Both the position numbers and the translations under genes were made by a program. From a virus (lineage: Duplodnaviria > Heunggongvirae > Uroviricota > Caudoviricetes), in the IMG/VR virus record IMGVR_UViG_2663763227_000008, positions 1 through 10,066 of that record: a stretch of 10,066 nt of DNA, one strand, 5' to 3'. The stretch's first letter is position 1, and every line of letters begins with the position of its first letter. This document shows, in pieces, positions 1,440-1,534 of this stretch. The notes under the pieces were generated by a model. That model did no database searches. It saw only the letters and a list, made by a program, of their open reading frames with translations, and was not told the DNA's origin.

Positions 1440-1534
1440 AACCTGCAAAACATCACATCTCCTGCGCATTTTTAATTCACCTGCTAATTTTACATTCTCC
1501 TGCACTTTTTTATTGCTCCTGCATCATTGTGGTG
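1440..1534 (+). repeat. Five contiguous 19-bp direct repeats with invariant CCTGC core (iteron/operator-like array) upstream of the ParA-like gene
   Basis: CCTGC occurs at 1442, 1461, 1480, 1499 and 1518, exactly 19 bp apart. The units are aaCCTGCaaaacatcacat, ctCCTGCgcatttttaatt, caCCTGCtaattttacatt, ctCCTGCacttttttattg and ctCCTGCatcattgtggtg. All share a C(T/A)CCTGC head and a T-rich tail. Confidence 0.85.

Follow-up and report, generated by a model that had tools for sequence, protein, structure and literature searches.

A CCTGC repeat array at the promoter of a ParA-like ATPase gene in the rexAB slot of a lambda-immunity prophage: a candidate operator read by the ATPase

Five short direct repeats, each headed by CCTGC, abut the predicted promoter of a gene for a ParA-like ATPase in the virus record IMGVR_UViG_2663763227_000008 (Caudoviricetes). 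Positions 1 to 10,066 of that record, the whole stretch of DNA that was analysed, are referred to below as the window. The question raised by this locus is what reads the repeats, and to what end. The initial annotation, made from the sequence alone, had proposed an iteron- or centromere-like array of the kind found in type Ib partition loci. Comparison of homologous loci, proteins and viral contigs leads us to favour, with moderate confidence, a reading in which the array is the cognate cis-acting site and own operator of the downstream ATPase, which would bind it through a C-terminal β-hairpin and repress its own gene.

The array and its conservation upstream of the ATPase gene

The array, the predicted promoter and the gene are arranged in the window as follows:

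1442–1536, plus strand: CCTGC array of five 19-bp units starting at 1442, 1461, 1480, 1499 and 1518, the tail of each variable and T-rich
1513–1541, plus strand: predicted promoter, with the −35 element TTGCTC at 1513–1518, a 17-bp spacer that holds core 5, and the extended −10 element TGcTTTAAT at 1533–1541
1554–1560, plus strand: Shine–Dalgarno sequence AAGGAGG, 7 nt 5′ of the ATG at 1568
1568–2611, plus strand: gene for a 347-aa ATPase of the ParA/MinD fold, with the Walker A motif LRGGVGKST, in which Arg replaces the signature Lys

The regularity described in the initial annotation held on re-examination. The five cores are separated by four exact 19-bp intervals without phase slip, three units (2, 4 and 5) start with CTCCTGC at 1459, 1497 and 1516, and the tails are T-rich yet variable; unit 1 opens with AACCTGC and unit 3 with CACCTGC. 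Tandem Repeats Finder returned a period of 19, and a pattern of three cores at 19-bp spacing matched three times in the window versus zero times in 200 dinucleotide-preserving shuffles. Elsewhere in the window (~10 kb), only four further CCTGC occur on the plus strand. The array had also been said to end at a putative −10 element, for which the extended −10 listed above is a plausible candidate. Unit 5 (GCATCATTGTGGTGC followed by TTTAAT) was additionally scored at 1521–1535 as a weak terminator-like hairpin overlapping the promoter spacer and the extended −10; this hairpin is probably fortuitous.

The array is not restricted to this prophage. Homologous loci were retrieved from 185,579 species genomes (61 loci) and from viral sequences (48 loci), and 91 non-redundant loci encoding a protein at least 56% identical were compared over 250 bp upstream of the gene. 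Between 3 and 12 CCTGC cores were present upstream on the gene strand in 90 of the 91. In the last 150 bp, cores numbered 37 per kb on the gene strand; the opposite strand had 2.7 per kb, and the remainder of the loci 1.8 per kb. The hosts represent at least eight phyla (Proteobacteria, Actinobacteria, Verrucomicrobia, Acidobacteria, Myxococcota, Planctomycetes, Bacteroidota and Chlorobiota) and include Enterobacterales, Pseudomonas, Burkholderiales, Xanthomonadales, Rhizobiales, Mycobacterium and other Actinobacteria, together with Verrucomicrobia, Acidobacteria, Sorangium, Planctomycetes, Hymenobacteraceae and a metagenome-assembled genome of Chlorobiaceae.

Core intervals were quantised at 19 bp (278 occurrences), 9 bp (115), 28 bp (21) and 38 bp (7). 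The earlier view of the array as a conserved iteron-like site on a promoter was therefore borne out, but its strict 19-bp rule was not, as the family also uses 9, 28 and 38 bp. Beyond CCTGC, the unit logo shows an A at position 6 (65–85%) and a block rich in A/T from position 8 to 12, with hardly any other preference. In an alignment of 12 enterobacterial cassettes built without reference to the cores, column conservation was 99.7% in cores versus 68% in spacers, and every array substitution among the E. coli copies falls within spacers. Each locus carries one array, always at the 5′ end of the gene (4 kb examined on each side). No obvious array was seen in subfamily P0123 or in relatives at ~31–32% identity (Aeromonas plasmids, L112). 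Locus L025 (295–395) has six GCAGG cores spaced by 9 bp and, after them, four CCTGC cores, which makes outward-facing arrays between divergent genes.

The promoter in the window was assigned by reading the sequence, and its −35 element is weak; transcription from it would begin at about 1548. The 1513–1541 block is the most conserved stretch of the enterobacterial alignment. Among the 91 loci, the motif TGnTAnnnT occurred within the last 110 nt in 42 (9.8 ± 2.8 in shuffles) and lay 2 or 6 nt from a core start in 37 of these; an additional core is found 3′ of the −10 element in 26 loci. Because several enterobacterial arrays start right behind the terminator that opens the cassette, the promoter must be located inside or 3′ of the array. 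The cores overlap or abut the predicted promoters, so a core-bound protein would occlude the promoter. Tandem promoters were rejected as an account of the repeats, since the geometry of the unit would place TCCTGC at the −10 position.

The ATPase and its C-terminal hairpin

The 347-aa protein matched the Pfam domains AAA_31 and CbiA and, in PHROGs, phrog_164 (“ParA-like partition protein”), and scored far under the cut-offs of the NCBIfam partition models. The fold, deviant Walker A motif (KGGxxGK[ST]), Walker A′ and Walker B of the ParA/MinD P-loop superfamily were all found. LRGGVGKST corresponds to residues 36–44 (window 1673–1699), and its arginine is nearly invariant, distant subfamilies included. 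Full-length identity across phyla is 57–86%, which marks an unusually conserved family. A search of PADLOC-DB 2.0 gave just a P-loop-level match to PDC-M28B (E = 0.0011 over 36 residues), and identity with a known anti-phage defence system was rejected because this match is confined to the P-loop.

The AlphaFold model (mean predicted local distance difference test, pLDDT, 84.7) adds to the fold an N-terminal helix (4–18), insertions, a C-terminal β-hairpin (318–328) and a last helix (332–346). A winged helix-turn-helix (HTH) domain at the N-terminus was absent from the Pfam matches, and the model has a single helix (4–18) before the P-loop strand. The position of the hairpin in the window is:

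2519–2563, plus strand: C-terminal β-hairpin FHTVSEGKRLQVNQS, codons 318–332, with strands at 318–321 and 325–328 in the model

A roughly 100-aa C-terminal extension of the ATPase had been named as one candidate binder. The C-terminal part exists, but it consists of the hairpin and helix, ~50 aa in all, the rest being the N-terminal helix and insertions. The C-terminal 95 aa alone gave zero Pfam matches even at E = 10.

The ATPase is the sole universal companion of the array. Open reading frames (ORFs) of 70 aa or more located up to 4 kb from the gene in either direction were clustered all against all across 112 loci, and no universal partner gene emerged. A second line of evidence came from homologues with altered cores. 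Two Rhizobiales loci, L059 and L060 (~49% identical), carry 19-bp-phased arrays in which the core is CC(A/G)CAC followed by TTTTT. Fourteen positions with conservation of 93% or more among 80 CCTGC-type proteins are altered in both, and five of the 14 lie in the hairpin (F318S, H319Y, Q328E, N330Y and S332A), compared to a chance expectation of about 0.6. Across eight subfamilies, hairpin residues change along with the upstream core:

Main family, P0124 and P0126: hairpin RLQVNxS, core CCTGC
P0128: hairpin RLEVNQS, core (C)CTGC, four copies at 19 bp
L059 and L060: hairpin SY..RLEVYxA, core CCRCAC at 19 bp
P0133: hairpin RMAVNPS, core ATTGTCA, 28-bp period
P0136: hairpin KLFINES, core GTGAAT
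P0142: hairpin RLTVNSS, core GGACA

This covariation points to the C-terminal hairpin as the putative element reading the bases, and it lends support to the earlier suggestion that the ATPase's own C-terminal part is the binder. The fold, too, is one of ParA-type ATPases that bind DNA.

The array and its conservation, the linkage to the gene, the overlap with predicted promoters, the boundaries of the cassette and the covariation are observed; binding of the array by the ATPase, repression of the promoter and any part in exclusion are inferred from them. In the mechanism proposed here, each CCTGC(A) core and the A/T-rich half-turn that follows it would be held by one ATPase subunit, the subunits being arranged head-to-tail. 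The bases would be contacted through the conserved C-terminal β-hairpin (residues 318–332), and the A/T block, half a turn further on, is probably approached from the minor groove. Several subunits would assemble cooperatively across about 100 bp in 9- or 19-bp registers. Successive sites in a 9/19-bp register are turned by about −50 to −70 degrees on B-form DNA, so the nucleoprotein complex may be spiral or wrapped. The promoter-proximal cores, placed in the −35/−10 spacer in the window or on the extended −10 element in many relatives, would then exclude RNA polymerase, and by such negative autoregulation the protein would set its own level in the lysogen. The ultimate role of the ATPase is probably in conflict between mobile elements.

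Several observations weigh against this operator reading. The covariation is correlative, with few independent lineages and with some subfamily motifs chosen by eye. A strict σ70 consensus scan did not call the predicted promoter of the window. ParA dimers are two-fold symmetric and the sites are direct repeats, so that a flexible hairpin or a filament-like assembly would be needed. In about 20% of loci the array is flanked by a gene for an IS1-like HTH/DDE protein, a potential binder there. Finally, arrays in viral contigs that lack the ATPase, described below, outnumber the ATPase genes in viral contigs (at least 76 versus 48), and a role as the gene's own operator is insufficient by itself to account for them.

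Prophage slots, orphan arrays and rival explanations

The window represents the leftward strand of a lambda-immunity prophage. Positions 283–1312 are 97.9% identical to lambda 38255–37226 and span cro, OR1-3 and cI through its stop codon, and 2614–2892 are 91.5% identical to lambda 35829–35550, from the last 5 nt of rexB through tImm to oL/pL. Non-lambda DNA begins at 1313, and 1313–2613 substitutes exactly for rexA-rexB; it contains a terminator hairpin, an AT-rich spacer, the array, the promoter and the 347-aa ORF. Lambda tImm/pL DNA starts 2 nt after the ATPase stop codon, with a pL-like TTGACA-17-GATACT at 2825–2853. Downstream of the pL region lie N, ERF recombinase, Ea22-like and other genes (Pfam). 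The flanking features are:

598–1311, plus strand: lambda cI repressor gene (HTH_3 and Peptidase_S24 domains), the final lambda-homologous gene ahead of the cassette
1313–1343, plus strand: terminator-like hairpin of intrinsic type, a 12-bp stem with a T run, which opens the cassette
1344–1441, no strand: AT-rich spacer of ~100 bp with the palindrome AACATAAGCATGTT at about 1369–1382
2614–2892, plus strand: return to lambda homology, with the last 5 nt of rexB, the tImm terminator (about 2620–2645) and oL/pL

The terminator at 1313–1343 insulates the cassette from cI read-through. Its hairpin, AGGTCGCAGAGATGCGGCCTTTT, is also found 5′ of the array in other enterobacterial cassettes, behind differing upstream genes. 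The AT-rich spacer is present in the four aligned E. coli copies and is exclusive to E. coli cassettes; at L004, L022 and L086 it is lacking, and the array directly follows the terminator. The cassette lies between conserved phage genes, has its own terminator and its own predicted promoter, and is swapped in relatives. Judged by its sequence, the unit of terminator, array, promoter and gene is a self-contained accessory cassette (“moron”), 1.2–2.1 kb in size. It occurs in just 5 of 5,426 complete E. coli genomes, in chromosomal prophages.

All enterobacterial and Pseudomonas copies lie within integrated prophages. An S24/cI-type repressor gene is found upstream in about a third of loci; other sites are after the Q antiterminator gene and, in Ralstonia phage RsoM1USA, the only isolated phage with the ATPase gene, next to attP. 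When the P. aeruginosa prophage at L098 was compared with phage Marin, homology stopped exactly at the first core and restarted 10 bp past the ATPase stop codon. The corresponding slot in Marin holds a DUF3800 gene and no array, which indicates that the array travels with the gene; a pre-existing target site was rejected, as the empty Marin site has no array.

DUF3800 genes were observed both in Marin (L244, 3464–4207), in the same post-cI slot, and in RsoM1USA (L113, 5087–5857), directly 3′ of the ATPase gene. Slots bearing DUF3800 or the ATPase appear to be interchangeable accessory or defence slots. A JetD (Wadjet) gene was seen in the vicinity of a distant homologue, P0124 (47% identical, with a CCTGC array; L238, 1–197), so that this may be a defence island.

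Viral contigs were scanned for four CCTGC cores at 19-bp spacing. At least 119 loci were obtained, at least 96 of them with variable spacers, versus one each for the control cores of the same composition, CGTCC and CTCCG. The ATPase accompanies 21 of the 119 array loci among the matches listed. At least 76 variable-spacer arrays, in 25 sequence families, are orphans on viral contigs without the ATPase, and none of their contigs is among the ATPase-bearing viral contigs found. Orphan units keep the grammar of the cassette (consensus CCTGCAcTTTTtCGcTGCT), and nearly all lie inside an ORF of the opposite strand. A period of 19 is not divisible by 3, and the cores therefore occupy every reading frame; the periodicity is thus one of the DNA and not of the protein. 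The antisense reading of the units gives peptides rich in K/E/Q/S/R, whereas the sense reading would give F/L-rich ones, a possible cause of the orientation bias. As these arrays have no adjacent ATPase gene, the array has value alone and presumably acts in trans.

Two sites of orphan arrays are represented by the following loci:

L234 (phage JBD44), 2654–2720, and L124, 8962–9023, antisense: P. aeruginosa orphan array, with related loci at L245–L324
L115, 2172–2233, antisense: Ea22-like orphan array within the ORF at 1840–2595 (minus strand), with about 20 similar viral loci

Compared with D3, the P. aeruginosa phages JBD44, phi297, DO4, Marin and others carry the array as an in-frame insertion of 63 bp; it lies antisense within the gene that follows Rz, in the n-region of the encoded signal peptide. 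Among 80 related prophages, about 60 have no array and about 21 have 3, 5 or 7 cores. Proximity of this site to cos or a genome end was rejected, the site being mid-genome in D3 and JBD44. One member of this P. aeruginosa phage group is a prophage that carries the ATPase, and its contig (a single one) is without the lysis-gene array. In Klebsiella, Salmonella and related lambdoid phages, the array lies at a module junction of an Ea22/EaA-like ORF, directly after NACRAAMLQ, a point that in other phages is the boundary between two genes. An array-less homologue of the Ea22-like ORF by which to date this insertion (group A) was not found locally. At L136 an array (8073–8134) was observed inside an opposite-strand ORF (7734–10916) for a 1,060-aa tape-measure-like protein. 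Other orphan families, each in a long opposite-strand ORF, were found at L126, L140, L146, L149, L164, L202, L216, L221, L222 and L224.

The orphans bear on an explanation that extends the operator reading and does not exclude it, namely that the ATPase is an exclusion effector neutralised or redirected by its cognate array. The single copy in a lysogen would autoregulate, the many copies made during the prophage's own replication would titrate the protein, and rival phages would have captured arrays to escape. Consistent with this are the exclusion slot of rexAB and the positions after Q and beside attP, as well as the abundance of same-grammar orphans relative to the single variable-spacer array per control core. 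The in-frame insertion of the JBD44 type, polymorphic at 0, 3, 5 or 7 cores in a phage group that includes an ATPase-bearing prophage itself free of the lysis-gene array, fits equally. A precedent is BstA/aba, in which a DNA self-immunity element lies at the 5′ end of a prophage defence gene (PMC8585504). However, PADLOC yields no real match, and the ATPase is rare (the 5 E. coli genomes and 61 species-genome loci given above), so that selection for decoys would seem weak. The polarity of the 63-bp indel, insertion or deletion, is deduced, and the check for co-occurrence of array and ATPase on one contig was made on a single contig. We regard self-immunity and decoy use as possible but unlikely.

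A broader form of the same idea is offered tentatively, and we give it little weight. A ParA-fold ATPase that reads a short DNA word by its hairpin may constitute, with its array, a portable “protein plus DNA password” module in mobile-element conflict. The array would serve two ends, autoregulation of the gene and labelling of the resident prophage's DNA as self, and rivals would repeatedly have smuggled orphan arrays as DNA decoys into tolerant coding regions, such as the spanin signal peptide, Ea22-like linkers and the tape-measure-like ORF.

Both proposals, like the operator reading, take the ATPase to be the reader. Alternatively, the array could be bound by another factor, such as the IS1-like HTH protein or a phage or host protein, with the ATPase merely the regulated gene. 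This is suggested by the existence of arrays without the ATPase and by the IS1-like HTH/DDE gene beside the array at ~20 loci of six phyla and in subfamily P0133. Yet ~80% of cassettes, those of the window and of Pseudomonas included, have no IS1-like gene, and their cores are strongly selected. A single host-factor specificity over eight phyla is unlikely, and the core sequence shifts together with the ATPase hairpin. We consider a separate binder rather improbable.

At the ~20 loci the array is located between the ATPase gene and the divergent IS1-family-like HTH/DDE gene, which is rarely downstream; at P0133 (40% identical; L326/L327) an IS1-like HTH/DDE gene also stands beside the array. 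The IS1-like gene scored 53–67 bits on NF033558, under the cut-off of 100. The IS1-like/ATPase module measures ~2.1 kb, with 65–72% DNA identity between phyla. Transposon ends of Tn7/Mu type were rejected, as each locus has just one array within 4 kb on either side, the empty Marin site has none, and terminal inverted repeats around the module were not convincing. A 15-nt inverted repeat (CTGACCATTATGCTT at 3841–3855 and AAACATAATGGTCAG at 3994–4008) was observed at L034, flanking the array and covering the divergent gene starts. In ~15 loci, a small convergent ORF of ~75–130 aa (...GRLGGMKGGKARA...) runs into the 3′ end of the ATPase gene; it has no match in Pfam or NCBIfam. These features were found at:

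IS1-like gene beside the array: L008, L010, L011, L013–L017, L019, L021, L026, L028, L031–L034, L042, L047, L052 and L055
Small convergent ORF, minus strand: L013 (5031–5285), L014 (5038–5280), and also L017, L026 and L032–L034

Architectures independent of any dedicated protein, including T-tract UP elements or curved DNA at the promoter, together with replication-origin iterons and an RNA leader, are very improbable. T-rich tails and the AT-rich stretch adjoining the array in the window would fit the first of these, but the G+C core is invariant even in high-GC genomes and the AT-rich stretch is absent from most loci. Against an iteron origin, the cassette holds no rep gene and no DnaA boxes. 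Positions 1250–1650 gave no Rfam match at threshold, and with a terminator directly 5′ of it in several loci the array is not in a leader.

Least probable of all, and scarcely credible, is a type Ib partition locus proper, with centromere/operator repeats, a small ParB-like adaptor and the ATPase as motor, as the initial annotation had suggested by analogy: no conserved partner ORF or parB-like neighbour, among ORFs of 70 aa or more, accompanies the gene, lambda tImm/pL DNA resumes immediately behind it, no homologue above 32% identity was found in 72,556 plasmids (PLSDB), and the copies sit in accessory slots of prophages, which in Enterobacteria and Pseudomonas are all integrated. Without a ParB gene or a close plasmid homologue, the locus is not type Ib by family membership. 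As an analogy for the operator reading, the operator logic of type Ib loci is still a good one.

Comparison with known systems

Literature searches on the family, the CCTGC array, a ParA in the rexAB slot, and IS1 together with ParA returned nothing relevant. What is apparently new here is a ParA-type ATPase with an operator-like array, without ParB and off plasmids, that would read its own sites. Array and ATPase look like an undescribed protein-DNA recognition module of mobile elements. If the operator reading is true, a ParA-family motor and a sequence-specific adaptor are joined in one chain, with a simple recognition hairpin that is apparently reprogrammable, in a small cassette that has spread over these eight or more phyla. 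Its presence in the classic rexAB slot of lambda makes the proposal directly testable in the best-understood phage system. The orphan arrays represent a non-coding DNA word under selection inside phage protein-coding genes, which is unusual; they may reveal a new phage-against-phage layer, either as decoy DNA or by hitch-hiking on a resident protein. As captured decoys they would parallel, at the level of DNA, both the aba element and RNA anti-CRISPR repeat mimics. For annotation, “ParA family protein” in a prophage does not imply partition.

The closest folds are McdA and chromosomal ParA/Soj. These bind DNA non-specifically, require a partner (McdB or ParB) and are without the C-terminal hairpin and helix. 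In the plasmid-borne type Ib system delta/omega of pSM19035, a separate ribbon-helix-helix protein, omega, reads contiguous 7-bp heptads upstream of delta, whose arrays serve both as operator and as centromere. Here there is no adaptor gene and no plasmid, the cores are 5–6 bp long and 9 or 19 bp apart, and the ATPase is the likely reader. Type Ia proteins such as P1 ParA and F SopA have an N-terminal HTH domain of ~100 aa, an inverted-repeat operator and ParB/parS partners. Their autoregulatory logic is that of the proposed model, in which the ATPase would bind and repress its own promoter, whereas here the N-terminal helix region is ~25 aa, the repeats are direct, and the hairpin is C-terminal.

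ParA-like ATPases without ParB have been described in a genomic island and in a prophage immunity region. ParI of P. putida KT2440 is an orphan ParA interfering with plasmid partition, according to the work cited in PMC9044938, and STM14_3218 is an 840-bp ParA-like gene in the Gifsy-1 immunity region with two partner genes (PMC9879122). Compared by their descriptions, both resemble the present ATPase in lacking ParB and are tied to inter-element conflict or moderated phage production, with no upstream array reported in those accounts.

Lambda RexAB occupies the identical slot, the replacement being base-for-base between the cI stop codon and tImm, with no kinship in sequence or fold. While rexAB is co-transcribed with cI from PRM, the ATPase gene lies behind an insulating terminator, with a predicted promoter and an array of its own. 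BstA is a prophage defence protein encoded downstream of cI, and its aba DNA acts as DNA and in trans (PMC8585504). The aba element is 63 bp long, contains two CCCGCC repeats and is variant-specific (PMC8585504); BstA is not an ATPase of ParA fold. The likeness, a prophage gene 3′ of cI with short direct-repeat DNA at its promoter or 5′ end, is positional and architectural only; unlike the variant-specific aba, the CCTGC core is common to many phyla.

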